Shown: positions 1 to 18,371 of the stretch, piece by piece
Position numbering within the stretch: position 1 is the stretch's first letter
Layout of the letters: each line of letters begins with the position of its first letter
Assembly: GCA_016840095.1 (NCBI GenBank)
Contig: JAEOSZ010000076.1
Coordinates: 1 to 18,371, forward strand
Direction of reading: 5' to 3'
Source of the DNA: Candidatus Heimdallarchaeota archaeon
GTDB lineage: Archaea; Asgardarchaeota; Heimdallarchaeia; Heimdallarchaeales; Heimdallarchaeaceae
DNA: 18,371 nucleotides
Translations under genes and position numbers: made by a program
Notes under the pieces: generated by a model
What the model was told of the DNA's origin: nothing
Seen by the model: the letters and a program-made list of their open reading frames with translations, nothing else
Databases searched by the model: none

Positions 1-3
1 AAA

Positions 4-255
4 TTGTTGAAGATATTGGAAAACTCTCCACAGTATCAAAAAGAACTTTCTGAAGATACTGGATTACGTGGAGGAACTTTCAAACATCACACAGATATTC
101 TACAAGACGAGGGATTCATTACTCGTGAGGCTATTAGAGGACGTTATCTAATTACTCAACTTGGAATTGAGGCTCTAAAACTTGCTGAAATGATCTATCT
201 TCGAGAAAAGCAATTGGAAGAAGATGAAGCAATTAACATAGATATTGAGGATTAG
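4..255 (+). CDS. Winged helix-turn-helix (ArsR-like) protein, probably 5'-truncated by the window edge
   Basis: The segment 'QKELSEDTGLRGGTFKHHTDILQDEGFI...GRYLITQLG' fits the wHTH helix-turn-helix plus wing pattern. The frame is open to the window start. Confidence 0.7.
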   Translation: MLKILENSPQYQKELSEDTGLRGGTFKHHTDILQDEGFITREAIRGRYLITQLGIEALKLAEMIYLREKQLEEDEAINIDIED

Positions 256-274
256 GAAATAAGGAGGAAATTAA

Positions 275-946: not shown

Positions 947-956
947 ATTCCTTTTT

Positions 957-1946: not shown

Positions 1947-1956
1947 CTTCTAAAAT

Positions 1957-2035
1957 TGGTGGGGCAGGCAGGATTTGAACCTGCGACATCCACTGTGTGA
2001 GAGTGGCATCATAGGCCAGGCTAGATCACTGCCCC
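1957..2035 (-). tRNA. tRNA-Val (anticodon CAC), CCA encoded, no intron
   Basis: Reverse complement GGGGCAGTGATCTAGCCTGGCCTATGATGCCACTCTCACACAGTGGATGTCGCAGGTTCAAATCCTGCCTGCCCCACCA. Acceptor stem GGGGCAG/CTGCCCC, anticodon arm CCACT-CTCACAC-AGTGG, T arm GCAGG-TTCAAAT-CCTGC. Confidence 0.97.
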
Positions 2036-2059
2036 TTAGTGGTTGTTGATTAATTGTTG

Positions 2060-2074
2060 ATTATTAATTTTTCT
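2060..2074 (-). promoter_or_regulatory. BRE/TATA promoter of tRNA-Val
   Basis: Minus strand AGAAAAA-TTAATAAT begins its TATA about 32 nt upstream of the tRNA 5' G. Confidence 0.55.
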
Positions 2075-2100
2075 AATTGCATCTTAAAATAGTATATAAT

Positions 2101-2320
2101 GCCCCCGAGGTTAACTCTAAACATCATTTTAAGGGATTCACCCACATCAGTTAGTTGAGCTCCTCAGGAGCAAACTGTTGTCTACCAGGGTTGACCGTGT
2201 TTCACAGTGTAGAATGTCTCACTCTACTCAACAGGAGCCCGTATGGTAGCCTATTGCCTTGTAATTGCACTTTCTTTCCTAGTCGGTTGATACCATCTCT
2301 AGAAAGTCCTCGATAAAGGC
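2101..2320 (-). ncRNA. Putative unclassified structured non-coding RNA (~220 nt)
   Basis: 46% GC (101/220, hand count) against AT-rich flanks. The ends pair (GCCUUU..GAGG / CCUC..GGGGGC) and there are several internal hairpins whose G-U pairs work only on the minus strand. A BRE/TATA lies upstream. Confidence 0.6.
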
Positions 2321-2338
2321 AATTATACATGGGTTTAG

Positions 2339-2357
2339 TATATATTGAACTTTTTTG
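2339..2357 (-). promoter_or_regulatory. BRE/TATA promoter of the putative ncRNA
   Basis: Minus strand CAAAAAAG-TTC-AATATATA, with the TATA starting about 27 nt upstream of G2320. Confidence 0.5.
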
Positions 2358-2365
2358 TCTTATAC

Positions 2366-2388
2366 AAAAGAGAAAAAGGAAAAATAAG
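2366..2388 (-). terminator. Oligo-U terminator after tyrS
   Basis: Minus strand CTTATTTTTCCTTTTTCTCTTTT immediately after the tyrS stop codon. Confidence 0.55.
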
Positions 2389-3462
2389 TTAAAGAGATTT
2401 GACTGCTTCAACTAAATCTTGATGTTTTTCGAAATACTTTCTTGATGGTTTCAAAATCTCATTCACTGTTTTTGCTAAACTCAATTTCAAATCTAACGGA
2501 TGTACAGAACCTTCCATATAATCAATCTTGAAAGATTCATATGAATTGTAGATTAGATCACCGCCAAACTTCTCGTCTCTTTCAATTCTGAATTCATCAA
2601 ACATGTCAAAAACTATGTATTGTACCATTTCAGTGATAGGATTTCCAACTACTTGCTTTGGAGGACATTGTGCTTTTTTGAGTTTCCTCACAACATCTTC
2701 TTCACTATCATGAATGAATATACATGTTTCTGGTTTTGATTTACTCATTTTGGCATCGATTTGATCAGCAAGATCTGGAACAGCTTCAGCATCCATTTTC
2801 TTACCAAAGCCTTGTAATCCTGTTATGAGTGGAGTATGAATACAACTTGGTTTTGTTCTACCTAGCTTCTCAGCTGTATCTCGAGCTAGCATGTGGGCTT
2901 TTCTTTGATCCATTCCTCCATAAGCTAAGTCTATTTCCATGTCATAGATATCAGCTACTTGCATAGCTGGATAGTAGATAAAACCAGATTCTATTTCACC
3001 TTCAGCTTTTCTTCCCATTACAGGAAGAGTTCTGAGAACTCTTGTAAGAGTATTTGCTTTAGCTACTCTGATGACTTTTTCCCAATATGTTATCTTTTCA
3101 GCAAGTTCAGATGCCCAAATATATTTTACATTTGGTCCTTTAGCACCAATTGATTCAAAGGCTTTTTTGAAATATTCTCCTGCCAGTTTGATTTTTTCCA
3201 TATCAGCTCCTAGTTTGTTATTAATCCAACTGTGCCAATCGGCAAGGAAAATTATTACTTCGAAACCTGCATTCATTAAGTCCTTAATTTTGTTTCCACA
3301 AACAATACCAGTTCCTAGATGAACAAGACCAGAAAGTTCATACCCAATGTATGCTCTTGGTTTTTCCTTTTCTTCCAAAATCTTTCTAATTTCCTCTTCA
3401 AGGATAACTTCTTCAGTATTTTTTGTAACTAGTTTTATTCTTTCTTCAATAGACATTAACAT
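2389..3462 (-). CDS. tyrS: Tyrosyl-tRNA synthetase (archaeal); start probably at 3456
   Basis: AYIGYE.SG.VHLG (HIGH-like), LADWHSWIN, YPAMQVAD, GGMDQRKAH, KMSKS and HPLDLK motifs. GGGTGA SD lies 6 nt before the second ATG. Confidence 0.97.
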   Translation of the reverse strand: MLMSIEERIKLVTKNTEEVILEEEIRKILEEKEKPRAYIGYELSGLVHLGTGIVCGNKIKDLMNAGFEVIIFLADWHSWINNKLGADMEKIKLAGEYFKKAFESIGAKGPNVKYIWASELAEKITYWEKVIRVAKANTLTRVLRTLPVMGRKAEGEIESGFIYYPAMQVADIYDMEIDLAYGGMDQRKAHMLARDTAEKLGRTKPSCIHTPLITGLQGFGKKMDAEAVPDLADQIDAKMSKSKPETCIFIHDSEEDVVRKLKKAQCPPKQVVGNPITEMVQYIVFDMFDEFRIERDEKFGGDLIYNSYESFKIDYMEGSVHPLDLKLSLAKTVNEILKPSRKYFEKHQDLVEAVKSL

Positions 3463-3608
3463 TCACCCAAACTATTTGAGGATTTGTTGATAATGACTGC
3501 CCTAACGTAACTCTATTTAAAAAACTCTTGGTTCGAGTTAACGATATTCCAAGGAAATCATCTCACTTCTGGATTATCCCTAAAACTCATAAATTTTTTG
3601 TCATTTGA

Positions 3609-3627
3609 TAAAAAAAAGAAGGAAGAA
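3609..3627 (-). terminator. Oligo-U terminator after dnaG
   Basis: Minus strand TTCTTCCTTCTTTTTTTT directly after the stop codon. Confidence 0.55.
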
Positions 3628-5196
3628 TTAAATTTGTTTAAACTCAATTATCTTCAAACCGGTTGGTTTTTTAGAAATTTCTCCTTTTCTTGCACCAATT
3701 ACTGTTTTGATTCCTTTGCCATTTGATCGATCTAATAATCTCTGAGTTATTATACCATCAATAACTAAAATATTACCTTTTTCGATTTTTTCTAAAGAAT
3801 CAAAAATTTCTGCTGCAGGAGACCTGAGAATTTCCTTTTCAGCTTCATCAAATACAATTGCTTCCAGTTTTGTTTTAACTGTTTTAACTGCATTAGTTAG
3901 ATATTCAGGAAGTTCAACTTTTCTTATTTCTCTTCTTGGAGGACGTTGACTTGTTGTAGATCTTGAATAAGTTCTTGAGCCAGAATGAGAACTTGGTCGA
4001 GAACCAGATCGAGAACTAGGACGTGATCCAGGTCGAGAATCAGTTCTAGGACGTGAGGAGGTATGAGATGGTCTACTTGATGATGGTCTTCCTGATGATG
4101 GCCTACTTGATGTTGGTCTTGGAGATGAAGGTTTCTGAGTAGTTGTTGGAGCAGTTTTCTTTTCTACTTTACCTTTACTAACTGTTGCAGCTTTTGTAGG
4201 TTTAGCTGGAACTTTCTTCTTACTTACTGTTTTTGTTTCCTTCACTTCAGCTTTAGGTTTCTTATCATCAGTTTCCTTTCTTGATAAAGTAAACTTTTTC
4301 AATCTCTTCTTAGGAGACTTAGATTTATCAAGGAACTCTTTAACTGTGAGATCTGCATCTTTACCTGTTAAGAAAACTGCTTTTTCTAATGGAACAGCTC
4401 CTTTCAAAGCTTGATTGGTTTCCTCTTCATTAAGGTCTTCAACTTCCTTTCCTTTTGGAGCTCGAGCTACAAATTCAACGTGTGATACTTGTAGTAATTC
4501 TTTTAGAATTAAATCCCCGCCTCTGTCACCATCTAGAAAAGCTGTTACTGTTTTCTTTGTAATTAAATCGATCAATTTAGGGGGTATACTTGTTCCATTA
4601 ACTGCAACTGTATTGTCAATACCATATTTTAGAAGATTGACAACATCTGCTCTACCCTCAACTAGAATTGTTTTCTTCTGTCTTTCAAATCCAGGACCAG
4701 CGGCAAATCCTTCATCACTGATACTAACTACTTGACTTGATTTAGAAGATTTTTGTACTTCCATACTTATTGATGAAGAAAAGGGACTAACATTTTGATC
4801 CCATTGACGCATGATTTCAGAAGCACGGTCAACAATTGATTGACGTTTATTGATTCTGACATCTACTATTTCCTCAAGCTTAACAGCACAACTGCATGGT
4901 CCTACTCTATCAACAGTTTCAAGAGTAGCTGCTAATATCGCAGTTTCCATCCGGGATAAGCTTGATGGGATTATTATTCTCCCAGAAGTTTTTCCTTTCT
5001 TGCTACTAAGTTCAACACTAATTCTTCCTATTCTTCCTGTTTTTTGGAGTTCGCGAATATCGAGATTTTCACTCAAAAGCCCATCTGTTTGTCCATAAAT
5101 CCCTCCGATTATGTCTGGCTTTTCAACGACTCCATCTATTTCAAAAGATGCTCTTATTTCATACTTTGTTGTTGAAGCATCTGTTTTTGCACCCAA
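3628..5196 (-). CDS. dnaG: Archaeal DnaG (TOPRIM; exosome-associated RNA-binding subunit) with a long disordered linker
   Basis: N-terminal 'GVVEKPDIIGGIYGQT.GLL...ELQKTGRIGRI', TOPRIM 'VEGRADV' and 'DGDRGG', C-terminal 'IDGIITQRLLD'. TTG start with AGGTGA SD. Confidence 0.96.
   Translation of the reverse strand: MGAKTDASTTKYEIRASFEIDGVVEKPDIIGGIYGQTDGLLSENLDIRELQKTGRIGRISVELSSKKGKTSGRIIIPSSLSRMETAILAATLETVDRVGPCSCAVKLEEIVDVRINKRQSIVDRASEIMRQWDQNVSPFSSSISMEVQKSSKSSQVVSISDEGFAAGPGFERQKKTILVEGRADVVNLLKYGIDNTVAVNGTSIPPKLIDLITKKTVTAFLDGDRGGDLILKELLQVSHVEFVARAPKGKEVEDLNEEETNQALKGAVPLEKAVFLTGKDADLTVKEFLDKSKSPKKRLKKFTLSRKETDDKKPKAEVKETKTVSKKKVPAKPTKAATVSKGKVEKKTAPTTTQKPSSPRPTSSRPSSGRPSSSRPSHTSSRPRTDSRPGSRPSSRSGSRPSSHSGSRTYSRSTTSQRPPRREIRKVELPEYLTNAVKTVKTKLEAIVFDEAEKEILRSPAAEIFDSLEKIEKGNILVIDGIITQRLLDRSNGKGIKTVIGARKGEISKKPTGLKIIEFKQI
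3986..4126. repeat. Degenerate in-frame tandem repeats in dnaG: 5x12 bp (3986-4045) and 4x15 bp (4067-4126)
   Basis: 12-mers: tgagaacttggt, cgagaaccagat, cgagaactagga, cgtgatccaggt, cgagaatcagtt. 15-mers: gatggtctacttgat, gatggtcttcctgat, gatggcctacttgat, gttggtcttggagat. They encode xxSR and PSSxR units. Confidence 0.8.
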
Positions 5197-5636
5197 TTTA
5201 GTTCACCTATTATGTTGCATAGTTGCATAAGCTTACAAGAAAAAGATGGATTCTTACTATCCCTTACCCTACTATTGTTATATCTCAAACTCATTAAGAG
5301 TATTTTTCCGACACATGTAATACACTTTATAGTGACTGTAATTTGACTTCTTGAAGTCAGTTAATGTTTATGATCGTGATAGGATGTGTGAGTGTAATCC
5401 ATCCAAGTTTTCTTGCATACTTGAACTCACATTATTATTTCAGGTGTATTTTCTTACCTGTAATTTCTAAATGTTGAACTATACATTCTTCAGTTCAAGA
5501 CAACATAAAAAAGTTAGAATTAAAAAAGTTCCCATTGGACACAAGCTTAAATAGGATTTCTAGGTTTGAAGAAGAATCATGAATAGGTTTTGCTTAAGTT
5601 TAAATAAGTTCAATTGCAGTCATATAGTGTAGAAAA

Positions 5637-6083
5637 ATGAACCCAGAATTATACATTGGATTAGGAGTCGGATTTGGGAGTTTATTCATAATAATTATTG
5701 TAATAATTGTTCTAAGAAGAGGGAAAAGGGAGAAGAACCCCTTGATTTCTAGATCAAAAGATGTCATGGTTATGATTAATCAAAGAATTTTATCAATGAA
5801 TTCAAGAATACAGAAATTTGATGATGAAATAACTAAATTAGTAGTTGCTAAAGAGAAAGAAGATCTATCACTTTTAACTATAGATATTGAACTGGATGAC
5901 ATTCCTCAAGAAATTGAAAGTAAAAAGAAGACAATTAATGATTACATAGCTGATATCAAGGATCTTGAAGATTATAAAAAGGAGATAGAAGAAATGTTGT
6001 CAAAGAAGGATGAGAACAAATGGAATGAATTAGAAACACTTCTTGAACAAACAAAAGAAAAAATGAGATATAGATTTACTTAA
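5637..6083 (+). CDS. Hypothetical single-pass membrane protein with a coiled-coil tail
   Basis: N-terminal hydrophobic segment 'LYIGLGVGFGSLFIIIIVIIVL' followed by RRGKR (positive-inside rule), then K/E-rich heptads. TTTAAATA box upstream at about 5599. Confidence 0.75.
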   Translation: MNPELYIGLGVGFGSLFIIIIVIIVLRRGKREKNPLISRSKDVMVMINQRILSMNSRIQKFDDEITKLVVAKEKEDLSLLTIDIELDDIPQEIESKKKTINDYIADIKDLEDYKKEIEEMLSKKDENKWNELETLLEQTKEKMRYRFT

Positions 6084-6159
6084 AGAATATAACCTATTAA
6101 TAGAAATGCTTTTATTCGAATGTTATGAGCAAAGAACAGAATAATTGAGGTGAGCCTTC

Positions 6160-6318
6160 TTGCCAGTTACAAATCCGGAGTATAGAGCTATCGCACGATC
6201 ACACATTATGGAAAAGAAAGTATGCAGAAAGTGTTATGCAACCAATCCTGTGAACGCAATTAAATGTCGTAAGTGTAGATCTAAGGAGCTCAGAATGAAA
6301 AGATCCAATAAGAAATAG
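6160..6318 (+). CDS. rpl40e: 50S ribosomal protein L40e (52 aa; missed by the ORF track)
   Basis: TTG start after GAGGTGA SD. Translation MPVTNPEYRAIARSHIMEKKVCRKCYATNPVNAIKCRKCRSKELRMKRSNKK has the L40e zinc ribbon CRKC..N....CRKC...LR.K. Confidence 0.93.
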   Translation: MPVTNPEYRAIARSHIMEKKVCRKCYATNPVNAIKCRKCRSKELRMKRSNKK

Positions 6319-6451
6319 ATTCAACTCAGGCACTCAATTCTAAAAATTTCAAACTGTATTGTCATAAGATTTAAATGCAAATTATAATCTTTGTTGATAA
6401 GTCAAACGTAAAAGTTGGAGAAACTGAAATTCCCTTTAATGTGATATACTA

Positions 6452-7351
6452 ATGAGCACCGAGAACGAAGAAATTAGCCTTGACGAAAAAAGAGAGAATC
6501 TTACAACTCTTAGATTAAGACGCAAAGAGCTAATTGACCAACTTCATGAATTTAATAAAAAACGAAATGAACTTCGTAGTCAAAGAGACAAAAATAACAA
6601 ATTAGCTAGAGAACTCTTTGATGAAGCTCGTGTTTCTAAAGAAAAAAGAGATCAGATTAATGAAGAAGTTCAAGTTAGAAAACAAATGCGTGACATTTTA
6701 CGTGAAGATGCGGATAATATTGGGAAGCGAATAGTAGAACTTGGATCACAGATGAAAAATATGGGTGTTCCCAAGAACAGACGTGTGGGAGATCGAATTC
6801 GAAGACTTGAAAGACAACTAGAAACAACACCATTTTTGACTAAAGAGATGGAAAAACAAACCTTAACCCAACTCGAAGAGCTTAGTTCTGAGTTTGAAAA
6901 ATTGGAACAGTTTAAAGATTTAAGAAGTGAATTCCGAGAGATTCAGAATAAATTAAGACACATGCAAACTGAAATCAAAACCTATCATACAAGTGTCACA
7001 ACATTAGCTCAAGAATCACAAATTCATCAAGAAAAAATGCTTGAAGCAACAAAAAAAGCGAAGAAAATTAAAGAAGAAGCTGATGAATCTCATGCAGAAG
7101 TCATAGCTTTAAGTGCAACTATCAGTGGAATAAGAAAAGAACTTGATGGTTTAACAGGAGAAGTAAAGAAACTCTCTAGTGATCTTGGACATGAAATTCA
7201 AGCAGCAAGAAGAGCTAGGAAAACAGAAGCTAAGAAGGTAAGAGAGCAAAGGTTGGATTCAAAAGCTGAAGAGATTTTAGTCAGATACAAAGATGGTGAA
7301 TCTTTAACTTTGGATGAATTCAAAGTTCTCATGGAAAGAGGTCTAATTTAG
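6452..7351 (+). CDS. Conserved archaeal coiled-coil protein (COG1340-like)
   Basis: All-helical heptad pattern, 'LERQLETTPFLTKEMEK' and the characteristic C-terminus 'GESLTLDEFKVLMERGLI'. Confidence 0.8.
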   Translation: MSTENEEISLDEKRENLTTLRLRRKELIDQLHEFNKKRNELRSQRDKNNKLARELFDEARVSKEKRDQINEEVQVRKQMRDILREDADNIGKRIVELGSQMKNMGVPKNRRVGDRIRRLERQLETTPFLTKEMEKQTLTQLEELSSEFEKLEQFKDLRSEFREIQNKLRHMQTEIKTYHTSVTTLAQESQIHQEKMLEATKKAKKIKEEADESHAEVIALSATISGIRKELDGLTGEVKKLSSDLGHEIQAARRARKTEAKKVREQRLDSKAEEILVRYKDGESLTLDEFKVLMERGLI

Positions 7352-7473
7352 TTTTCCTAAAAATTTTCTACTTATTAGAAATTAATGTAGTTTTATATAA
7401 TAATACACGTTATACACAATTCTTAAAACAAGAGTATATGAATCCATTAAAAGCAATAAATGGTGTTCTTTAA

Positions 7474-7977
7474 GTGAAGCTACCTATTTGTGTTATCGAC
7501 GCACAGACAAATACATTGTGTAGAAAGTGTAAACAACTTTACAGAGAAGGAAAAATTTCAGATATCGATATCGATATCTCAAAAATCTTAACCGATGCTT
7601 CTCAATCAAACAAGGATTTGAAAGGCATATCTTTCTACTCATCATATGAACTCTCAGATGTTGTTATGATAATAACAAGAAAACAAGATGTTGCTATATT
7701 GTCTTCTCCTGAAATTCTTGATAAAATTAAACAAAATACACAGAAAGAAATTCGTTTTCTTGAAAAGACAAATAATCCAAAAAAATTAGTTGAAAGCTTA
7801 TTGGACCCAGTTCCAATAGTTAATGTAACAACTTTGTATCTCCCCCCTTTCAGTGATAAAGAATATAAAATTGAAATTGATAAAAAATTTAAAGATAAAC
7901 TTCCTATCCCTGAGGAAATTGTTGTTCAAACAGTTACTTCTGTATTAGATACACAAGCTTACATCGAATTTATATGA
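7474..7977 (+). CDS. NusA-like transcription elongation factor (archaeal NusA2 type, KH-fold)
   Basis: N-terminus 'MKLPICVIDAQTNTLCRKC...GKISDIDIDIS' typical of this family, and 'LLDPVPIVNVTTLYLP'. Confidence 0.8.
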   Translation: MKLPICVIDAQTNTLCRKCKQLYREGKISDIDIDISKILTDASQSNKDLKGISFYSSYELSDVVMIITRKQDVAILSSPEILDKIKQNTQKEIRFLEKTNNPKKLVESLLDPVPIVNVTTLYLPPFSDKEYKIEIDKKFKDKLPIPEEIVVQTVTSVLDTQAYIEFI

Positions 7978-8096
7978 CATGCAAAAACAAGATATAACAA
8001 AATGAGAGAGTTAAATGAAATTAGGAACTTTTTTCCTTTAAGTCATTCAGCATTCAATCGTTATTATTTTATACTCAAGTTACTTACAATGCTTGT

Positions 8097-8456
8097 ATGG
8101 GTTTCAAGTATAAGCAAGTTATTGTTGTTCGAACTGATTTGAAGATGTCTAAGGGAAAAACAGCTGTTCAGGTTGCACATGGTTCAGTTTCTGCATACGT
8201 AAAAGCAAAGAAATATTATCCGGATTGGGCTGACAATTGGTTTGGTGAAGGACAAAAGAAGATAACTGTTAAAGTAAGTTCTCAAGAGGAATTACATGAA
8301 TTAGCAGAAAAAGCTAGAAAACTAGATTTACCATATGCTATAATCAATGATGCGGGACTTACACAACTACCTCCAGGAACAACAACAGTAATTGGAATAG
8401 GTCCATCAAGATCTGAATTAATAGATAAAGTATCTGCAGATTTATCTTTGTTATAA
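8097..8456 (+). CDS. pth2: Peptidyl-tRNA hydrolase Pth2
   Basis: KQVIVVRTDLKMSKGK.AVQVAH, GQKKI, DAGLTQLPPGT.T.IGIGP. Confidence 0.97.
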   Translation: MGFKYKQVIVVRTDLKMSKGKTAVQVAHGSVSAYVKAKKYYPDWADNWFGEGQKKITVKVSSQEELHELAEKARKLDLPYAIINDAGLTQLPPGTTTVIGIGPSRSELIDKVSADLSLL

Positions 8457-8479
8457 ACCGTCTTAGGGAGAGACATCTT

Positions 8480-9724
8480 TTGAATACTGCCAGCTTGCTT
8501 GTACCTCCAATAACAAAGGGGAAGAGAGTAGATGGTCGAATTAAACAATTGCCAGAAGATTTCATTGTAAGTGAGAAAATTGATGATGAGCATATACTGA
8601 ATCCACGAGATGAATCTTATAACCTTCCAGGTAAGAAGGGTTTATTCCTTCATTTTGTACTTGTAAAGAATAATATTGATACATCTGTTGCACTGGATTG
8701 GATTGCTAATTTATGGAAGGTTAATCGAAACGATTTAAGTATTGCAGGAACTAAAGATAAAAGAGCTTTTACAGCTCAGAGAGTTTCACTTTGGGGAGTA
8801 AAAAAAAGATATGAAGAAGGAAAATTGAAAGAAATCAATCTTCCAAAAATCAAAACAAAGTCATTATGTTTTAGAATTAAAGACATTAGGCTTGGAGATT
8901 TACTTGGGAATGCATTTGATATAATTCTTAGAAATATTTCAACAGATTTGACAACTACACGGAGTGTTTTAGAAGATAAAATTCTGGAAATTAATGAAAT
9001 TGGTTACTTGCATAATAGTTTTGGTCAACAAAGGTTTGGAGATACTAGACCTATAACCCATTTAATAGGTGAAAAACTGCTTCTGGGGAAGGTCCAAGAA
9101 GCATTGAAAATCTATGTTGGAAAAAGTTACGGAACAGAATCTCAAGAAGCACTTGAAGCAAGAAGACTTTATTGGGAAACAGAAGATCCTCAAAAGGTTC
9201 TTGAAATAATACCAGACCAAATGCATATAGAAAAGAAAATATTACGATTTCTCCAAAAATTCAAAAACCATGAACGTGCATTTTTTTCTCTTCCTTTGCA
9301 ATTCCAAAAATTATTCATTCATGCTTACCAATCTTATATTTTCAATAAATATCTTAAAATTAGATATAATGAATACTCAAAAAACCTTAGTGCCCCAATT
9401 TCTGGAGAGAAGATAATTGAGAACATTGCTTACGCACCTCTAGTTGGTAGTAAGACAGAATTAGAAGGTCAATCTAAAGAGATCTATACTAGAATCCTTG
9501 AAGATGAAGAAGTATCTCTACAAGATTTCAACAGAAGCATTGCAATAAAACTAGGGTCACGAGGTTCTAACCGATCAGTAGGTATGAAAATAGATAAATT
9601 AGCAATTATCGAAGTCACAGATGATGAACTTAATGTTGGAAAAACTAAAGCAAGAGTAGGTTTTGAATTGCGAAAAGGGTCTTATGCAACTGAAGTTTTA
9701 AAGGAATTTTCTTATCAAGAATGA
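8480..9724 (+). CDS. truD: tRNA pseudouridine(13) synthase TruD
   Basis: IKQLPEDF.V.E, catalytic AGTKDKRA.T.Q, GDL.GN.F.I, N.FG.QRFG, HAYQSY.FN, GSYAT. Confidence 0.96.
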   Translation: MNTASLLVPPITKGKRVDGRIKQLPEDFIVSEKIDDEHILNPRDESYNLPGKKGLFLHFVLVKNNIDTSVALDWIANLWKVNRNDLSIAGTKDKRAFTAQRVSLWGVKKRYEEGKLKEINLPKIKTKSLCFRIKDIRLGDLLGNAFDIILRNISTDLTTTRSVLEDKILEINEIGYLHNSFGQQRFGDTRPITHLIGEKLLLGKVQEALKIYVGKSYGTESQEALEARRLYWETEDPQKVLEIIPDQMHIEKKILRFLQKFKNHERAFFSLPLQFQKLFIHAYQSYIFNKYLKIRYNEYSKNLSAPISGEKIIENIAYAPLVGSKTELEGQSKEIYTRILEDEEVSLQDFNRSIAIKLGSRGSNRSVGMKIDKLAIIEVTDDELNVGKTKARVGFELRKGSYATEVLKEFSYQE

Positions 9725-9758
9725 TTCTAGAAATAGAATCAGTTAAACGATAAATACA

Positions 9759-10211
9759 TCACACATTTCTAACCATAAGGAAAGCATCTGAATTATCTTG
9801 GTAATATTTTCTGATTCGTGATACAATTTCAAATCCTGTTTCCTCATACAATTTTATCGCTCCTTCATTATCAACATTGACCTCAAGTTTTGTGCTGTTA
9901 AAACCCAATAAAGACGATCTTTCGAGGAAATGCAAAAGAACTCTCTTACCAAAACCTAAACTTCGATAATTTTCGATAACTGCGATTGATAGAATATGTG
10001 TTTGTTTTTCTACACCAGTATATCCTCCAAGCAAAAATCCAACCATCTCCCTTTTGTATTCAATAATAAAACACAATTCTGGTGCAGCAAAATAGATATT
10101 TGTTATTAGTGCTTCACCAAAAGGGTATGGAAAACTCTTTCTTTCTATTTCATAAACCTCTTGAATATCTTCTTTTCTCATGTGTCTAATGTAGGGAGAT
10201 TTATCATTCAT
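9759..10211 (-). CDS. GNAT N-terminal acetyltransferase (RimI/Ard1 family)
   Basis: IER.SFPYP, HILSIAV...YRSLGFG, LEV.VDN..AI.LY...GF, YYQD..DAFLM. Confidence 0.92.
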   Translation of the reverse strand: MNDKSPYIRHMRKEDIQEVYEIERKSFPYPFGEALITNIYFAAPELCFIIEYKREMVGFLLGGYTGVEKQTHILSIAVIENYRSLGFGKRVLLHFLERSSLLGFNSTKLEVNVDNEGAIKLYEETGFEIVSRIRKYYQDNSDAFLMVRNV

Positions 10212-10378
10212 TTATATCACAGATAGGATTTTGGTGTAATATTATCAAGTTTCATTTTAGTGAATTTTCTTGGTTTTATTGAACTACAAGAAGTGATTTT
10301 TTTACTTTTCTGAATAACCTAGTGTAAAATAAGTTTTAAATTGGGCAGGTCAATGTATTCATAATTAGAAAAAACTAG

Positions 10379-10816
10379 ATGAAGAAAATGAGTAAGAAAA
10401 GAGCTGCTGATTATGAGAGAGTGTTGGTAAACAGATTTTGGGATTTCGGATTTGCAGTAATGAGAGCTCCTTCTTCATCTGGAACAAGTAAAATGCCCAG
10501 ACCTGATGTCTTTGCAGGATCAGCTGAAAAAGGAATGCTGTTAGCAATTGAGATTAAAACAAGTCGTCAAGATGTTTTTTACATCCAACCTGAACAAATT
10601 CAAGGATTAACAGAATTTGCAGATAGATTAGGCGCTAAACCATATGTTGCTGTAAAATTTGTTGGTAAGAGAATGGATTTTCTCTTTCTCTCAGTTCCTG
10701 ACTCTTTAACACAGAGTAAAGGTGGAAGTTATAGAATAACTGTTGAAAATCTTAAATCAAAGGGGACTGATTTCTATTCCCTCATAAATGAAGAAGAACG
10801 CAAAGGTCAAAAATAA
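10379..10816 (+). CDS. hjc: Holliday junction resolvase Hjc (start possibly 10388)
   Basis: YER.LV......GFAVMRAPSS.G, PDVFAG, IEIK, EQI..L..FA, YVAVKF. Confidence 0.93.
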   Translation: MKKMSKKRAADYERVLVNRFWDFGFAVMRAPSSSGTSKMPRPDVFAGSAEKGMLLAIEIKTSRQDVFYIQPEQIQGLTEFADRLGAKPYVAVKFVGKRMDFLFLSVPDSLTQSKGGSYRITVENLKSKGTDFYSLINEEERKGQK

Positions 10817-10849
10817 CAAGTCTAAAATCAATCTGAAGTTGACAATGAA

Positions 10850-11938
10850 ATGAAGATACTAAAAAAAGACTACAAACATGGAATAATTGAACTTATCCCA
10901 GAGAACACAGATGACCTTTATGGTATCTATAGAATCTTAAAACCTGGAGATAAAGTTAGAGCTTCCACATCTAGAAGAGTAAGGAGAAAAGATGATGAAG
11001 GAAGAGCTGATACTGGTGAAAGAGTTAAAATGACTCTTGAGGTAGAAGTAGAAGAACTTGCATTTCATGGTTTTGGAGATAATTTGAGGTTCAAAGGAAC
11101 GGTAATTGATGGTCCAGATGACTTAATATCTCTTGGTTCCTATCACACCATTTCATTGTCGTTGATGGAAAAGATAAGGATTCTAAAAACTAACTGGGCA
11201 CCCATGGAGAAAAAGGTAATTGATGACATAGAAAAAGCATCGATGTTAGCTAAAATAATAATTGTTACAATCGAAGATAATAGTGTCTGTGTTGCACTTG
11301 TCACACAATTTTCAACAAAAATAATATCTGAATTTAGTTCAGCAGTTTCTGGCAAATATATGGAACCTCAACAACATTCAAGTGATATGGGACAATTTTT
11401 CCAAGATGTACTCCAATTGATACAAGACATTGTTAAACAACATGATACAAAAGTGATCATCTTAGCTGGTCCTGGTTTTACTCCTGAAAACTTCCATCAG
11501 TTTATTAAATCTAGAGATCAGCAACTATTTGAAAAAATAAGTTTGGTTCATGTTAGCACTGGAGGAAGAGTTGGTTTAAAAGAGGTTCTTTCTACAAAAC
11601 TTCCAGAGAAAATTGCTAATGAACAGCGTGTTGCTTATGAAACTCGATTAATCGACGAAGTATTGAAGAGATTAGGTCAAGATACTGGAAATGTAACTTA
11701 TGGTCTAGATAATGTTAAACGAGCTTTAGATATGGGTGCAATTGAAACATTGATGATTAGTGATGACCAAATTAGTATAGAAGACCTTGAAAAACGAAAA
11801 ACAATAGATGAGATGGTTGATGCTAATTCAAAAATGAGAGGAAAGACAGTAATTATGTCGATCAATCATGAATCAGGAGAGCAACTTTCAAAATTAGGTG
11901 GTCTTGCTGCTCTTCTACGATATCCTTTACCAGATTAA
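10850..11938 (+). CDS. pelA: mRNA surveillance / ribosome rescue protein Pelota (Dom34)
   Basis: PENTDDLY, GD.V.A.T.R, GSYHT, LAGPGF, YG...V..A..MGA..TL, HE.G.QL..LGGLAALLRYP. Confidence 0.96.
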   Translation: MKILKKDYKHGIIELIPENTDDLYGIYRILKPGDKVRASTSRRVRRKDDEGRADTGERVKMTLEVEVEELAFHGFGDNLRFKGTVIDGPDDLISLGSYHTISLSLMEKIRILKTNWAPMEKKVIDDIEKASMLAKIIIVTIEDNSVCVALVTQFSTKIISEFSSAVSGKYMEPQQHSSDMGQFFQDVLQLIQDIVKQHDTKVIILAGPGFTPENFHQFIKSRDQQLFEKISLVHVSTGGRVGLKEVLSTKLPEKIANEQRVAYETRLIDEVLKRLGQDTGNVTYGLDNVKRALDMGAIETLMISDDQISIEDLEKRKTIDEMVDANSKMRGKTVIMSINHESGEQLSKLGGLAALLRYPLPD

Positions 11939-13030
11939 TCACAATGGTTCTAAATAGGTGATAATTCCTTCAGGGTAGGGATATTGGTGTATAATCTCAA
12001 GTGTCAAATTAATATCGCTAAGTTTTGACTTTATATCATTACCTATTCGTTTTGCAACTAACCAGTTAAGAAATATAGTGTTGCTCATTTTGTCAATTTC
12101 ATAATCATCCAATTCAAAACCATAGTCTGAAACAAGTTTTTCTGTGACTGTTGAAATAAATTTGTTGTTATCAACTACTATCCTGGCGCGAACCAATAAA
12201 CCATCTTCTGTTATTTCATCAAAACGATTTGCGTATTTGTCAGCTCTTCTTAATAATCGATTCTTCAGTTGAGTGTTATCTTTGTATCTTGAAGAACAAT
12301 AATGAATAGCAATAACTGATTTCTTGAATTTTTGTAGAATTCCTATTGCTAATTCTTCACTTCCTTTTACAGCTGCACTAACACTACTTCTTACTAGATA
12401 ATTCATTTTTGTTAGAATTTCCACATTTGCTTCAGTTATCTCAAATTCATTTAGATTGACAAATTTCAATTTGTGATCAATTGCAAAATTTACAATCTCT
12501 AGTATCTCTTTCTCTTTATCCGGAATTACTGGAATTTCTATTCCAACTTCCCAATCAAAGGAAGTTGAATTCTTCAATGTCTCTTTCATTTTAGTAGTAA
12601 GTTTTAATCTTGGGGGATGAAATCTAATTTCATCCAATCCAGAGTTATAAAGAATTTTCATTTGGTCTAGACTCAGGGAATGTGATGTATAAAGATGACA
12701 ATGAAAATCTGCTCCAAAATGTTCTTTGAACCTACTAACGTAATCAGTAACTCTATCAATTGTTACAGCTGGATCTCCACCAGTTATACCTGCACCAAGT
12801 GCAGAAATCATCTCTGCTTCTTGTATTGCTTCATCAATCGAACTAATTTGTTGTTCATTTGCAAAGGTAATGTCTTGTCTTCTTTCTTTCATTATGGGAC
12901 AATAATAGCAATTAGAGTGACATTCTCCAGTAACAAACAAAACCAATTTCGCACCTAAAGAACAAAGTTGACAGCCTTTGATTGGTTTTCCAACTATCTT
13001 ATTTTCATGCCACTTGGAGATTTTTTTCAT
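11939..13030 (-). CDS. Radical SAM protein (COG2108-like, PFL-activating-enzyme related); start taken at ATG 13030
   Basis: GCQLC..GAKLVLFVTG.C...CYYCP (CxxxCxxC), GAGITGGDP, GLDEIRFHP, NLNEFE. The 19 codons upstream in the ORF track look like promoter DNA. Confidence 0.88.
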   Translation of the reverse strand: MKKISKWHENKIVGKPIKGCQLCSLGAKLVLFVTGECHSNCYYCPIMKERRQDITFANEQQISSIDEAIQEAEMISALGAGITGGDPAVTIDRVTDYVSRFKEHFGADFHCHLYTSHSLSLDQMKILYNSGLDEIRFHPPRLKLTTKMKETLKNSTSFDWEVGIEIPVIPDKEKEILEIVNFAIDHKLKFVNLNEFEITEANVEILTKMNYLVRSSVSAAVKGSEELAIGILQKFKKSVIAIHYCSSRYKDNTQLKNRLLRRADKYANRFDEITEDGLLVRARIVVDNNKFISTVTEKLVSDYGFELDDYEIDKMSNTIFLNWLVAKRIGNDIKSKLSDINLTLEIIHQYPYPEGIITYLEPL

Positions 13031-13146
13031 TCTTAAAAAATTAAAATTCTTTATAATAAAAAGTATCAGTTTGGGGAGAGATAGCATTTAATTACAAAAG
13101 AACAGTTTTTTATAGCAATTATTAGATTATAGTGAAAGGGTGAATC

Positions 13147-14337
13147 ATGCTTACAACTTTTCAAATTATCTTGTTTGTTCTAATTGGATTCTTACTCCTA
13201 TCGTATTTAGCTAATGTGCTAAACCTTCAAAAGTATGGAATACATATCTTGCCCTTTGGTATCATTTTTAGAACTAAGTTCTTCAACAAATTACTAGAAA
13301 AAATGGGAGAGAAGGGAAAGAAGTTCTGGAAAATTTTATACGATGTTGGCAAAGTCATAGCAGGTCTTATAACAATTGGTTTAATAGGATATTTTATTGT
13401 AAATCCATTCTTATTGATTTTCAAATCACCTGGTGGGATAGGCTTACAACTTCTAATTCCTGGAGTAACTATAGATTTCAAAATAGCACTATTATTCATT
13501 TTACCCATTTTAATTGTGCTTATCCCTCATGAGATTGCACATGCAGTGATGGCTCATAGGGAAGGAGTCAAAATCAAATCTTCTGGAATTTTCATTGTAC
13601 TTGTATTCTTTGGTGGATTTGTTGAATTAGCTAGAGAACAGATTGAAAAAGCAAAATTAAAAAGTAAAATAAGGATTTTTCTTAATGGTTCTGCAATTAA
13701 TGCAGTTTTTGCAGTGTTCTTTGTAGCTCTATATTTCTTATCACCATTGATTGTATCCATCGGTTATTCAAACCCAAGTGGAGTGTTAGTAACCAATGTT
13801 TATGATGATTATCCTGCCGATATTGTAGGGATTGCACGAGGTGATGTAATAACAACCATTGGAGCATACAATTCCTCAACAGGGCAAGTTACATATTACG
13901 ATATAAATAATATTGATGATTATCATAGGGCTCTTTCAGAGAATTTAGAATCTGATCTTTTATTTATAAGTTTCTTGGATAAACCTACGAGAGCCCTTGT
14001 ACCCACGACAGATGACCCATCATCTAAGAAAGATAGTAATGATAGAATTTTTCTTGGAATCAACATATACAATTATTATACACCAAAATCAGAAAGACAG
14101 TCAGAATGGTTCCCTTATTATTGGAATATTCAGATACTCTATACATTGAATATTAGTATAATGGCCGTATTTCTGAATCTTTTACCTTTAGTTTTAACTG
14201 ATGGAGATAAAATTCTCCATGCATATCTAATGAAAAGATATCCTGACAAACCTAAAGGTAAGAAAGTGTTAAATGTGGCTAGAATATTATCATTCTGTTT
14301 AATTATTGTTAACATCGTTTTATCAATGACATTATAG
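13147..14337 (+). CDS. Site-2 protease (M50 zinc metalloprotease) with PDZ-like insert
   Basis: Multiple TM segments, HEIAH zinc motif and NLLP...DG motif. 'GVLVTNV...YPA..VGI..GDVIT' is PDZ-like. GGGTGA SD. Confidence 0.92.
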   Translation: MLTTFQIILFVLIGFLLLSYLANVLNLQKYGIHILPFGIIFRTKFFNKLLEKMGEKGKKFWKILYDVGKVIAGLITIGLIGYFIVNPFLLIFKSPGGIGLQLLIPGVTIDFKIALLFILPILIVLIPHEIAHAVMAHREGVKIKSSGIFIVLVFFGGFVELAREQIEKAKLKSKIRIFLNGSAINAVFAVFFVALYFLSPLIVSIGYSNPSGVLVTNVYDDYPADIVGIARGDVITTIGAYNSSTGQVTYYDINNIDDYHRALSENLESDLLFISFLDKPTRALVPTTDDPSSKKDSNDRIFLGINIYNYYTPKSERQSEWFPYYWNIQILYTLNISIMAVFLNLLPLVLTDGDKILHAYLMKRYPDKPKGKKVLNVARILSFCLIIVNIVLSMTL

Positions 14338-15291
14338 GTGAAATCAATGAAATGTACTCTATGTGGAGGGCAAACTGTATATATCAGACAGTATGACAAA
14401 TTAGCACTTTGTAAGAGACATTTCAATGAACAAATGACGAAAAGAGTTCAAAAAACAATTACTAGATATAAGATGCTGGGGAGAAAAGATAGAATAGCTA
14501 TAGGCGTTTCAGGGGGAAAAGATAGTGTTGCTCTTCTAGATATTATGTCAAAGATAGAGAAGGATTTTCCAGAAAGTGAACTAGTAGCAATTATCATCGA
14601 TGAAGGAATAGAAAACTATCGAGAGGAGGGCTTATATTTCGCGAAAAAACATGCAAAAAGATTAGATATTGAGCACCATGTTTTTTCTTTCAAAAAGGAT
14701 TTTGGTTATGATCTTGATGATGTTATTGAGATTTTAGGAGAGAGAGGAAAAGATAGAGAATATGGAGCTTGCTCATACTGTGGTATTTTAAGAAGAAAGA
14801 TTTTGAATAAAGCTGCACAAAAAGTTGATGCTGATATTTTACTTACAGGTCATAATCTTGAGGATGAAGCAGAGACTATTCTGCTCAACATAATTAGAGG
14901 AGACATTACCCGTCTTGTGAGATTAGATCCAAAACCAAGAAAAATACATCACAGTTTAATCCCTCGTGCGAAACCTTTCCGTACAACACCACAGGCAGAA
15001 ATAGTGATGTATTGTTATCTAAATGATCTGGAATATCAGGAACTTCCTTGTCCTTATGCAGTAGAGGCATACAGAGGAGATGTTAGAGATTTCATTTTTA
15101 AAACTCAAGAAAAACAATCTATGTTATCATTCAATATAGTTAGAGGTTTAGATAAATTATTGAAAATGGTTACAGACGTTCCATCCGGCAACAAAATGCA
15201 GGATTGTTCAAAATGTGGTGATGCATCAGCAAGTAATCTGTGCAAAGCATGCTGGTTAAAGGATAAAATAGATATAATCCAAAAAATATAA
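14338..15291 (+). CDS. tRNA 2-thiolation protein, TtuA/Ncs6 (NcsA) family (start possibly 14347)
   Basis: N-terminal CxxC...CxxHF, PP-loop SGGKDS, DEGI..YR, CSYCG..RR, TGHNL.DEAET, CPY, C-terminal CxxC...CxxC. Confidence 0.92.
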   Translation: MKSMKCTLCGGQTVYIRQYDKLALCKRHFNEQMTKRVQKTITRYKMLGRKDRIAIGVSGGKDSVALLDIMSKIEKDFPESELVAIIIDEGIENYREEGLYFAKKHAKRLDIEHHVFSFKKDFGYDLDDVIEILGERGKDREYGACSYCGILRRKILNKAAQKVDADILLTGHNLEDEAETILLNIIRGDITRLVRLDPKPRKIHHSLIPRAKPFRTTPQAEIVMYCYLNDLEYQELPCPYAVEAYRGDVRDFIFKTQEKQSMLSFNIVRGLDKLLKMVTDVPSGNKMQDCSKCGDASASNLCKACWLKDKIDIIQKI

Positions 15292-15390
15292 TCGATTGTT
15301 CACTATTATGCACAGACGTTAAGAACAAGAGATATAAACTATTCTTTTTTCACTAATATAATTACTCAAATCAACTATGAGGAGATATGT

Positions 15391-15975
15391 ATGAGTGAAA
15401 CACTGAAAAATCTTGCAAAAGCATTCATTGGAGAGAGTCAAGCTAGAAATAGATACACAATGTATGCAAAAGTTGCACGAAAAGAAGGGTATGAACAAAT
15501 CGCCAATATTTTTCTTATTACAGCAGACAATGAAAGAGAACATGCTAAATGGAACTTCAGAATGATCCAAGAAGTCAAAAAGAAGTTAAAAATCAAAGAT
15601 GAAGCCATTCATGTTGAGGCTGAAGCACCATTAGTGCTGGATGATACCATTGCTAACCTCAAAGCTGCAATTGCAGGAGAACATTATGAATATACTATAA
15701 TGTATCCAGAATTTGCAGATGTCGCTGAAAATGAAGGTTTTCCAAAAATAGCAGATAGATTAAGAGCTATTGGAGAAGCAGAAGTACATCATGAAGAACG
15801 ATATAAGAAGCTTCTAGCACAAGTTGAAGGTAAAACTGTTTTCAAGAAAGATAACAAAGTTAGATGGGTTTGTCAGAAATGTGGTCATGTTCATGAAGGA
15901 GAACATCCTCCAGACAATTGTCCAAGCTGCAGCCACCCAAGTAAATATTACGAAATTCTATGTGAAACATACTAG
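15391..15975 (+). CDS. rbr: Rubrerythrin
   Basis: Diiron motifs [11 protein letters not shown]...IA..F..TA.NEREHA, GE.YE...MYP, E.HH, and a C-terminal rubredoxin domain W.CQKCG...CPSC.HP. GAGGAG SD. Confidence 0.96.
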
Positions 15976-15990
15976 TTTCACAATTTTTTC

Positions 15991-17946
15991 TTATTTAGTA
16001 AAAATAGTTTGTAAATAGCTTGAAAGATGAATACGATCATTTAAATCAAAGCTTTGTTTATCTTGAATCTTACTTTTTAAATTTCTCCAGATATTTGAAG
16101 AATCTTGATATTCTCTAAGTAATACTCGAAATTTGCTTATAGCTGAGTAAGATTTTCCCATAAAAGCATAGCACAATTTGAAACCATCTATCTCTTGAAA
16201 AATCACGTTAAAGCCATTAACTTTTACTCTCTCGATAAATTTTTCTGAATCTTTCTGTGAGATTTCAGTTTCAGATATTATTTCCGTTAATTTGACTATC
16301 ATCATTTCAGTTAAATTAGATGATTCGAAATTCTCAGTAAAAATTATAGAACCAATATGATTAATCATTAAAAATACACTAGGTTTTTCTGTTTCAAGAA
16401 CAATATCCTCATATGAGATTTTGTTTTTCACAAATTTATCTAATAATTCTTCCAAACATGTAAGTTCCATTCTGTCAATTATATCCGGGAGTTGATGTGT
16501 AGTATTATCCCAAATATCAAGTTGGTCAATAAGTTCATCATGTGCATTTGAGATAAGAGTTCCAAGTTTATGAATTCCTTTTTTATCCGCTATCATTTGA
16601 GCTTTGTTCATCAGTGCTTTAGCTTCTTTTGAATTGTTCCCAAGTAATGCTAATTGTGATTCAAACAAATATACTTCTGCAAGTAAAATAGAAGATTCTT
16701 GTTCTTCAGCTTTTCTTCTAAATCTATGTACGGTTTCTTTGAGCTTTTCAAAAATGGATAGATCCTTTAAATTGTGAAATTCCTGAACATACAAATCACA
16801 TAAATGAAATAAAGCTGTTTTGTTTATGTCTGCAAATGCAAATTTTGCAGAGGAAAGTTCCCAAAAAATTTGCTCAGCTTCTAATCGTTTATCTAAATCA
16901 TGCTCTATTCCTTGAGTCAATTTGTACTTAATAATAAGTGCTTTTAACAGATTAAACAACCTATGACTTTGGTGTATCTCTCCCTGTACGTTTTGAATTT
17001 CTTCTAGCATATCTTTATGTTCTAGTGCTCTTTCCAAATCTCCCATTTCCAAGGAAACCATACCTAGTCGATAAAGTACCTCTGAATAATGCCAATGTTT
17101 TGTATTTTTAGCTCTTTCTAAAGTTTCTTTACTTCTCTCATAATATTGGTAAACTTTTTTTACGTCTCCTTTATGCCAATGATAAATAGCCATGCTTCCG
17201 AGAAGAATTCCTATGATAAACGGTGAATTCATCTCCTCTGCTAATGATAAACTTCTTTTCGCGTGTTTGTAGGCTTTATCCAACTCTCCTCTTATCATAT
17301 AGATATCAGCCATATTACCCTCTGAACCCATTTTCAACTCAATATTACCTGTTTTTTCGCTAACAGCTAAACATCGTTCATAAAACACAAGACCCTCAGT
17401 CTTTTTATCAAACCAACTGTGAAGATTTCCTAGATCATGTAGATGCCATCCAATCTCATAATCATCATTGATTTGTTCAGCAATTTCTAGACCTTGATTC
17501 AAATCTTCTAGAATAGAATCAAAACCATAACGATAAGGTTTTCTTCTTCGCAAGTAGAATGCCTTTCTTCTTAGATACTCAATTCTTTGTTTATCTTCTA
17601 TTGAATTAATAGCTTGCTCAAAGACATCCTTCATTTCAAACGCTTTATCAATATTACCAGTTATAATATAAGTCCCCTGTAACCAAATTGCTGAATCAAA
17701 AATCAAATAATGATTACCAATTTCTTGACTCTTTTGCAAAGCTTCAAGTCCATTTTCCAGTGCTAGAGAATATGGTTGAATGAGATAATAGATTCTGCTT
17801 TTTAGTATTTTACAATTGATATAATCTTCAGTCGTAATATTCTCTTTCTCTAAATAGCGATCCAGTTGTTTAAGAGCTAAAGGGTATTTTCCGTAAATAA
17901 TCAAATTCTCAATTTCTTTTAGCTCAGGATTAAGAGAACCTTTCAC
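15991..17946 (-). CDS. Tetratricopeptide-repeat protein with a putative C-terminal longin-like domain
   Basis: TPR-like helices (e.g. 'NMADIYMIRGELDKAYKHAKRSLSLAEE', 'YRLGMVSLEMGDLERALEH') and an alpha/beta C-terminal ~130 aa. GTG start with GGGTGA SD. Confidence 0.82.
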   Translation of the reverse strand: MKGSLNPELKEIENLIIYGKYPLALKQLDRYLEKENITTEDYINCKILKSRIYYLIQPYSLALENGLEALQKSQEIGNHYLIFDSAIWLQGTYIITGNIDKAFEMKDVFEQAINSIEDKQRIEYLRRKAFYLRRRKPYRYGFDSILEDLNQGLEIAEQINDDYEIGWHLHDLGNLHSWFDKKTEGLVFYERCLAVSEKTGNIELKMGSEGNMADIYMIRGELDKAYKHAKRSLSLAEEMNSPFIIGILLGSMAIYHWHKGDVKKVYQYYERSKETLERAKNTKHWHYSEVLYRLGMVSLEMGDLERALEHKDMLEEIQNVQGEIHQSHRLFNLLKALIIKYKLTQGIEHDLDKRLEAEQIFWELSSAKFAFADINKTALFHLCDLYVQEFHNLKDLSIFEKLKETVHRFRRKAEEQESSILLAEVYLFESQLALLGNNSKEAKALMNKAQMIADKKGIHKLGTLISNAHDELIDQLDIWDNTTHQLPDIIDRMELTCLEELLDKFVKNKISYEDIVLETEKPSVFLMINHIGSIIFTENFESSNLTEMMIVKLTEIISETEISQKDSEKFIERVKVNGFNVIFQEIDGFKLCYAFMGKSYSAISKFRVLLREYQDSSNIWRNLKSKIQDKQSFDLNDRIHLSSYLQTIFTK

Positions 17947-18007: not shown

Positions 18008-18022
18008 GGAAAAGTAGTAGAC

Positions 18023-18353
18023 AACTGAGCCGAACATAGCGACCAGTTGTTCGACATCATATCAGAAGCCGTTTCTTAACCATAAGCTCCACGCCGCTTG
18101 CTATGGGCACCACATATCAGTCTTAGAGCTGCTTACTTCCGTACCTGGCCCATTTTGACTTCAACCTTTCTAACGATTTCCTCCGAAACCGCCTCCAGTG
18201 TACACAGTCTCATAGGGCAGCGCTTCGACGCCATCCGATTAAGGCGTATCAACCTCAACGAAGCCTCAGCAACAGCATTCACCCCAGCATATAGAGCGCT
18301 TCTGGTACAAGGACGCCCTAGGTCCCCGGCTAGTCGTTGCTATCGACTCAGTT
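18023..18353 (-). other. Bulge-helix-bulge processing stem enclosing the SRP RNA (arms 18330-18353 and 18023-18046)
   Basis: 5' arm AACUGAGUCGA-UAGC-AAC-GACUAG pairs with 3' arm CUGGUC-GCUA-UGU-UCGGCUCAGUU as 11 bp, 3-nt bulge, 4 bp, 3-nt bulge, 6 bp. Confidence 0.8.
18041..18335 (-). ncRNA. ffs: Signal recognition particle RNA (archaeal 7S RNA)
   Basis: Minus strand shows helix 8 GCCAGGUAC-GGAA-GUAAGCAGC (SRP54 site) and helix 6 GCGGUUUC-GGAG-GAAAUCGU (SRP19 site). The Alu domain has a UGUA turn and complementary loops UAGGGCG/CGCUCUA. Helix 1 is GACUAG/CUGGUC; length is about 295 nt. Confidence 0.95.
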
Positions 18354-18371
18354 TCTAGTAAGCAGAAGAGG

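Follow-up and report, generated by a model that had tools for sequence, protein, structure and literature searches.

The window, i.e. the whole 18,371-nt stretch of DNA that was analysed, is an entire contig (C59 of the assembly denoted G000). Positions 1-17946 carry ordinary housekeeping genes around the SRP RNA gene: a minus-strand tRNA-Val (1957-2035) and genes for a C5 DNA methylase, a class I Trp/Tyr-type tRNA synthetase, a Toprim (DnaG-like) protein, TruD, a Pelota/eRF1-like protein, a radical SAM protein, an M50 peptidase, a PP-loop ATPase and rubrerythrin. A TPR protein of 651 aa adjoins the SRP gene on its downstream side. The archaeal SRP RNA itself lies on the minus strand at 18342-18037, within the final 350 bases of the window, and is the only SRP RNA match in the assembly (3.44 Mb, 89% complete).

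The Rfam model Archaea_SRP (RF01857) aligns to the window over its full length, model positions 1-317, with 88.7 bits (E 1.5e-20). Since this is lower than the gathering score of 96.5, the gene is absent from a default Rfam run on the window, which returns tRNA-Val alone. SRP RNAs of the same genus, which also includes the MAG 'Candidatus Heimdallarchaeota archaeon AB_125', score 87-107 bits and many of them fall below 96.5. The GGAG loop of helix 6 and the CAGG, GGAA and AGCAGC motifs of helix 8 stand at their consensus positions in the Rfam alignment (as CGGAGG, GCCAGG, CGGAAG and AGCAGC). The gene order is collinear with model positions 1-317 throughout, with no circular permutation, in agreement with the description of the gene as non-permuted in the initial annotation of this DNA.

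That annotation had placed the SRP RNA inside a bulge-helix-bulge (BHB) motif, the substrate of the tRNA-splicing endonuclease EndA, and all of the helices and bulges that it named are present on minus-strand reading. They are listed below in the pairing register termed A, together with the alternative register B, which is shifted by one base, and the products predicted from each.

18353-18343 (AACUGAGUCGA) with 18033-18023 (UCGGCUCAGUU), minus strand: core of the outer helix, 11 bp with one G-U
18357-18354 (UAGA) with 18021-18018 (UCUA), minus strand: extension of the outer helix, a further 4 bp across a bulged G at 18022
18343-18357, minus strand: leader, read from its pairing as the 5' strand of the outer processing stem
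18018-18033, minus strand: trailer, the 3' strand of the outer stem (core 18033-18023, bulged G 18022, extension 18021-18018)
18342-18339 (UAGC) with 18040-18037 (GCUA), minus strand: central 4-bp helix, register A
18338-18336 (AAC), minus strand: 5' bulge, with the predicted EndA cut between 18337 and 18336
18036-18034 (UGU), minus strand: 3' bulge, with the predicted cut between 18035 and 18034
18335-18330 (GACUAG) with 18046-18041 (CUGGUC), minus strand: inner helix, the remainder of SRP helix 1, 6 bp with one G-U
18010-18013, minus strand: T-run past the stem, read from the sequence, T4 here and T5 in most relatives; a probable transcription stop
18336-18035, minus strand: predicted excised and circularised SRP RNA, register A, 302 nt, with the full Alu and S domains inside
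Register B, minus strand: central helix AUAG/CUAU, bulges CAA (18339-18337) and GUU, inner helix of 7 bp
18337-18034, minus strand: predicted product of register B, 304 nt, with the 5' cut between 18338 and 18337
Predicted ring junction, register A: CAACTGGTCGCTATG at the 3' end joined to CGACTAGCCGGGGACC
Predicted ring junction, register B: CAACTGGTCGCTATGT at the 3' end joined to ACGACTAGCCGGGGACC
Predicted junction in most other species of the genus: CAGGTCGCTATG
Predicted ligated flank of leader and trailer: GAGTCGATAGCAA joined to TTCGGCTCAG

In both registers the two bulges are 3 nt each, on opposite strands and each 3' of the 4-bp central helix, as in the hBHBh' motif, and they are flanked by an outer helix of 11 bp (15 bp with the extension) and an inner helix of 6-7 bp. 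As in a precursor of the pre-rRNA type, the leader and trailer of one transcript pair and a long stem encloses the mature RNA, an assignment that rests on the TATA box upstream and the T-run downstream of the stem in relatives, the promoter of the window gene lying beyond the contig end. The Rfam model assigns the central helix of the BHB to the outer part of helix 1, and its ends are 6 nt and 2 nt off the predicted mature ends; as the scores are also below its cut-off, annotation pipelines miss or mis-bound these SRP RNAs. A k-turn reading of the bulges is ruled out, the pairs after the bulge being G-C and A-U with no sheared or tandem G-A.

Genes for both enzymes that the initial annotation had invoked, EndA for cutting and RtcB for ligation, are present in the genome. 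EndA is represented by two paralogues of 183 and 180 aa (C165:5932-6480 and C104:23839-24381 of G000), each with the N-terminal and catalytic domains, and RtcB by a protein of 497 aa (C93). The nearest solved chains to the first EndA paralogue are 3p1z_B, 3ajv_B and 2zyz_B, which are catalytic subunits from crenarchaeal heterotetramers of relaxed specificity, and the two paralogues probably form a heterotetramer of the broad-specificity type. According to a preprint (10.64898/2026.10.13.758758), 44 of 60 Asgard genomes encode two EndA paralogues, as would fit an (alpha-beta)2 enzyme. The splicing pathway is in use, since 15 of the 46 tRNA genes identified with ARAGORN contain introns. When the cut rule used above (each strand has its bulge 3' of the 4-bp helix and is cleaved past the second bulge nucleotide) is applied to tRNA introns, it returns the intron lengths given by ARAGORN, i.e. 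17 nt for tRNA-Arg, 38 and 30 nt for tRNA-Leu, 13 nt for tRNA-Thr and 49 nt for tRNA-Ser. The geometry and polarity at the SRP ends are thus those of an EndA substrate, as had been proposed, and the same rule holds for the tRNA introns of this genome. The genes for 16S and 23S rRNA, sought as positive controls for pre-rRNA BHB motifs, were not found in this assembly; among relatives, the closed genome G045 alone showed a plausible BHB for pre-16S at 250 nt or less from the gene.

To follow the motif among relatives, SRP loci were gathered from 205 Asgard genomes with the Rfam model and 60 nt were read on each side. The order of the window comprises families f1 (that of the window), f3 and f4, with at least 12 genera and 38 full-length SRP loci. 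A BHB with an outer stem of leader and trailer, 4-18 bp long, is found exactly at the SRP ends in 38/38 of these loci, and 37 of them have the strict 3-4-3 geometry; the exception, G044, has a 5' bulge of 2 nt at maximal pairing. The stem sequences are unrelated between the three families, as illustrated by the following loci.

G029 (f4): outer stem 14 bp, central helix GGGC/GCCU, bulges AAC and AGA
G019 (f1): central helix GUAG/CUAC, bulges CAA and AAA
G026 (f3): central helix UGGG/CCUA, bulges UAA and GAA
G035 (f3): central helix UGAG/CUUA, bulges CAA and GAA
G036 (f3): central helix GGGA/UCCU, bulges AAA and AGA

In a MAFFT alignment of the 38 loci, 85.3% of the cells expected to pair do so, a figure that drops to 25-40% if the 3' partners are displaced by 1-3 columns, and 22 of the 25 pairs show changes on both sides. 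The columns of the central helix (44-47) are 90% paired over the 38 relatives, with both-side changes in all four pairs. None of 500 shuffles matched any of five measures on this alignment, a statistic that overstates the support because the genomes compared are related and not independent; more weight lies with the control with displaced partners and with the complete dissimilarity of stem sequences between the three families. Covariation across the SRP flanks that keeps the 3-4-3 geometry, envisaged when the motif was first described here, is found order-wide in the form of compensatory changes. The BHB is almost certainly a selected feature.

Two further loci deserve mention from this survey. 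Downstream of the intact SRP gene of G022, at a distance of 270 nt, there is a second, weaker SRP match (L005 1360-1657, on G022:C152, also L062), the 5' part of which is unrelated sequence but in which the BHB is kept in its 3' half, as is the trailer; it looks like a 5'-truncated duplicate. Locus L225 (JBHLQZ010000003.1) comes from a MAG named 'Candidatus Thorarchaeota archaeon QM1B.68', yet its SRP 5' end is the genus-specific one otherwise confined to Heimdallarchaeota MAGs, so that the Thorarchaeota label or the binning is probably wrong.

Register is less firmly fixed than geometry. A one-base slipped register had been allowed for at the outset, and register B is indeed equally well formed; its structure scores almost as register A does on the 38-locus alignment. 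By alignment columns, 18 sequences, those of this genus, fit both registers, eight fit A alone (f4, three of f3, and G045/G046) and five fit B alone (the G019 group and G041/G042). As relatives are split between the registers, what is conserved is the geometry and not the register. Energies of the minimal hairpin rank register A (-29.1 kcal/mol) over register B (-27.3 kcal/mol). Folding energy alone does not pick the BHB, because a non-BHB alternative (-29.9 kcal/mol) is 0.8 kcal/mol better than register A, and the stability of the whole 360-nt fold is not above that of shuffled sequence (z = -0.01). Within the genus, one bulge position is variable (U, A or G), and this is the third nucleotide of the register-A 3' bulge. 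Under register A the variable nucleotide would end in the discarded trailer and the predicted junction would not differ among the 18 species of the main clade, which weakly favours that register. The 3' bulge in the main clade of the genus (UGU, UGA or UGG) is mostly without the terminal A that the tRNA BHB motifs of this genome have, which counts against processing by EndA.

Outside the order the arrangement of the SRP ends is different. The BHB stem is absent from all 73 loci read there, of which 23 belong to f5 and f7, sister families within the same class, and 50 come from 20 further Asgard families. The Asgard SRP RNAs that have no BHB end in a contiguous terminal helix of 6-15 bp, e.g. 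UGGCAAGUC/GACUUGCCA, and the sequence UGGCAAGUC is common to f7 and f23. The promoter differs in position as well. In f5 and f7 the TATA box is centred 24-26 nt ahead of the SRP 5' end, and the 3' end is followed by a T-run. In family f1 the box is a conserved gTTTAAAT; 29-32 nt separate its centre from the core outer stem downstream (38 nt in one genus), and a T-run comes after the stem. The same TATA placement is seen in a 98%-identical metagenome contig (1129 nt, JGI), which covers the promoter region past the contig end of the window. From the position of the TATA box ahead of the outer stem in f1 it follows that transcription should start a few bases before the stem and that the stem belongs to the transcript. 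By homology with these relatives, transcription in the window would start at about the leader (18357-18343). Taken together, the distribution looks like a gain of the BHB stem in the ancestor of this Heimdallarchaeia order.

The helix that would be left at the SRP ends after excision is 2-3 bp in f3, 5 bp in f4 and 3-7 bp in f1, i.e. 2-7 bp overall versus 6-15 bp in SRP RNAs without a BHB. Such a residual helix is too short to hold free ends together, as expected if covalent closure had replaced helix 1.

Other variants of the SRP ends were seen in the wider sample. In f14 (G140, G150, G185, G199, G201) and f21 (G128, G151, G169) the SRP model matches only at positions of about 67-307 or 82-292, and these RNAs may be without an Alu domain, permuted, or too diverged. 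Loci L205 and L211 (f24) and L243 (f26) have GGGAG-AAA before the SRP terminal helix and CUCC or UUCCC after it, giving a short extra helix in which a single A bulge of 3-4 nt interrupts just one strand, unlike a BHB.

The following maturation route is proposed from the structure of the locus. The primary transcript of the SRP gene would be about 350 nt long. About 15 nt of leader and about 30 nt of trailer would flank the SRP RNA and pair as a 15-bp processing stem, with a canonical BHB where the stem meets SRP helix 1. The SRP RNA would thereby take the position of a tRNA intron, or of the rRNA in an archaeal pre-rRNA stem. EndA would cut past the second nucleotide of each bulge, and RtcB would ligate the excised piece through its 2',3'-cyclic phosphate and 5'-OH termini. 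A ring of 302 nt (304 nt in the slipped register) would result, in register A with a 7-bp helix 1 capped by the 5-nt loop CUAUG; leader and trailer would be joined as a small hairpin and discarded. The BHB is very likely cut, and formation of a ring is likely. The combined reading, in which the SRP RNA is excised by EndA at the BHB and closed to a ring by RtcB, is probable. Whether the ring, rather than a re-opened linear form, would be the working SRP RNA is an evenly balanced question, and the same balance applies to the order-wide extension of the proposal, namely that throughout the order the working SRP RNA may be a ring made from a non-permuted gene by the tRNA-splicing machinery, its closure replacing a helix 1 that has shrunk to 2-7 bp.

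Searches for the junction in existing collections gave the following. A 16-nt junction pattern with a 0-2 nt gap, which is too unspecific, has at least 120 matches in metagenome contigs, with an SRP context in none of those listed. A 23-nt junction pattern had no match in viral contigs, a collection unlikely to contain 300-nt RNAs. Exact look-ups of the spurious 49-aa and 86-aa ORFs inside the SRP gene, aimed at RNA-derived contigs, likewise gave no match, and a homology search with a spurious SRP-internal ORF returned one 98%-identical ORF, on the 1129-nt JGI contig mentioned above, which is of ordinary genomic order.

Several other explanations bear on this proposal. The one that survives best accepts cleavage by EndA and departs from the ring afterwards: the ring might be short-lived or ligation absent, and the working SRP RNA might be linear with trimmed ends, like archaeal 16S rRNA. 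Circular pre-16S and pre-23S RNAs are re-opened in most of the archaea studied (PMC12918454, PMC7758197), and the sequence carries no sign of the fate of the RNA after the cut. Against this, the ends of a linear form would be held by only 2-7 bp (2-3 bp in f3), compared with 6-15 bp where there is no BHB, leaving the Alu end frayed; the circular form is functional in Thermoproteus (PMC4731332), and a second processing signal is not evident. This reading is considered unlikely.

Less probable still is that the stem is not processed at all and represents a lineage-specific extension of helix 1, kept in a mature RNA of about 350 nt, with bulges that are structural or bind protein. Covariation-backed pairing would be expected there too, and the Rfam model already puts the central helix in helix 1. 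Such an extension gives no reason, however, for two 3-nt bulges placed 4 bp apart on opposite strands with the polarity of an EndA substrate over at least 12 genera, nor for a geometry that persists while all of the stem sequences change and the register moves by one base. The sequence of the outer stem is also unconserved, unlike the unprocessed SRP terminal helix that is shared by f7 and f23. A retained helix is regarded as improbable.

That the BHB shape is a chance match in an AT-rich genome is hardly credible and is refuted in practice by the comparative data: although BHB-shaped matches are plentiful in a genome-wide scan (6138 when spans of up to 3.6 kb are allowed, 694 at up to 450 nt), and about 7-8% of cross-family or shuffled-flank controls yield an outer helix of at least 6 bp in the 60 x 60 nt search window, the SRP BHB is within the top seven of the 694 matches and stands above chance because it coincides exactly with the SRP ends on both sides and is conserved, with compensatory changes, in 38/38 loci of the order, against 0/73 outside it.

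The scan also drew attention to other sites in G000. Its best match, C117:1878-3833, spans 1.9 kb with inverted termini of 16-18 bp that are compatible with a BHB in three different registers; no Rfam family matches it, and it may represent a mobile element instead of an RNA gene. The remaining top-ranked BHB-shaped stems enclose 130-360 nt (C122:88004-88383, C98:2611-2767, C3:23840-24227, C49:70610-70937 and C70:1330-1638), and none of these five candidates has a match to an Rfam family.

To our knowledge, BHB-dependent circular SRP RNA is known from two Thermoproteus species only, where it repairs a scrambled gene. In Thermoproteus tenax and T. uzoniensis the precursor of the SRP RNA is permuted, recombinant EndA cleaves its BHB in vitro and the RNA is circular, as shown by Plagens et al. 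(2015, PMC4731332). Ligation by RtcB has been proposed for these RNAs, and covalent closure stands in for helix 1 (PMC4731332). In both cases the leader and trailer of an SRP precursor form a BHB, and the mechanism proposed for the order of the window is the same. In Thermoproteus, however, the permuted gene begins and ends within the S domain and has no helix 1, and the molecule is made whole only by circularisation. The gene of this Asgard (Heimdallarchaeia) order differs from that of these Thermoproteales in having a BHB at the normal ends of helix 1 and a short helix 1 left, and, being collinear, it is not a member of the permuted Thermoproteus type.

Closed SRP RNA has also been met in archaea with ordinary, non-permuted genes. 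By circRNA-seq, circular SRP (7S) species were detected in Sulfolobus, Halobacterium, Haloferax and Thermococcus by Danan et al. (2012) and in later re-analyses (PMC3326292, PMC12558985, bioRxiv 10.64898/2026.03.23.713588). These resemble the present case in the form of the gene but are circular segments or minor junctions without a BHB, whereas here a dedicated, conserved BHB would set the ends of the whole molecule. Archaeal tRNA introns (hBHBh') share the identical geometry, polarity and predicted cut positions; the roles of the parts would be reversed, with the excised piece as the functional product and the ligated 'exons' as waste.

The closest architectural match is found in the processing stems of archaeal pre-rRNA, where a BHB in the 16S and 23S stems leads through EndA and RtcB to circles and where a non-permuted stable RNA is likewise enclosed by a long stem of leader and trailer, with the BHB at the inner end of that stem and the whole RNA in the intron position. 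The differences lie in the cargo, which here is an SRP RNA transcribed alone from its own promoter, whereas pre-rRNA comes from an operon and most of its circles are re-opened. Circular 16S and 23S transcripts have been reported in Asgard archaea, with no mention of SRP RNA (PMC12918454). No description of a non-permuted SRP RNA within a BHB stem was found in full-text searches, in line with the remark made when the motif was first noted that none was known from Asgard archaea.

Here an intact gene appears to have gained an rRNA-style processing stem that a whole order has kept, and if the proposal is true, circularisation would be a chosen maturation route and not a repair. The order sits among the closest archaeal relatives of eukaryotes and would offer a testable case for the role of a closed end in the SRP RNA of mesophilic Asgard archaea, to which the 'heat stability' argument put forward for Thermoproteus applies less obviously. 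The predicted junction could serve as a lineage-specific marker for metatranscriptomes. Set beside the known systems, what appears to be new here is the combination: a mechanism of the Thermoproteus type, predicted to act within an architecture of the pre-rRNA type, on the transcript of a non-permuted SRP gene.
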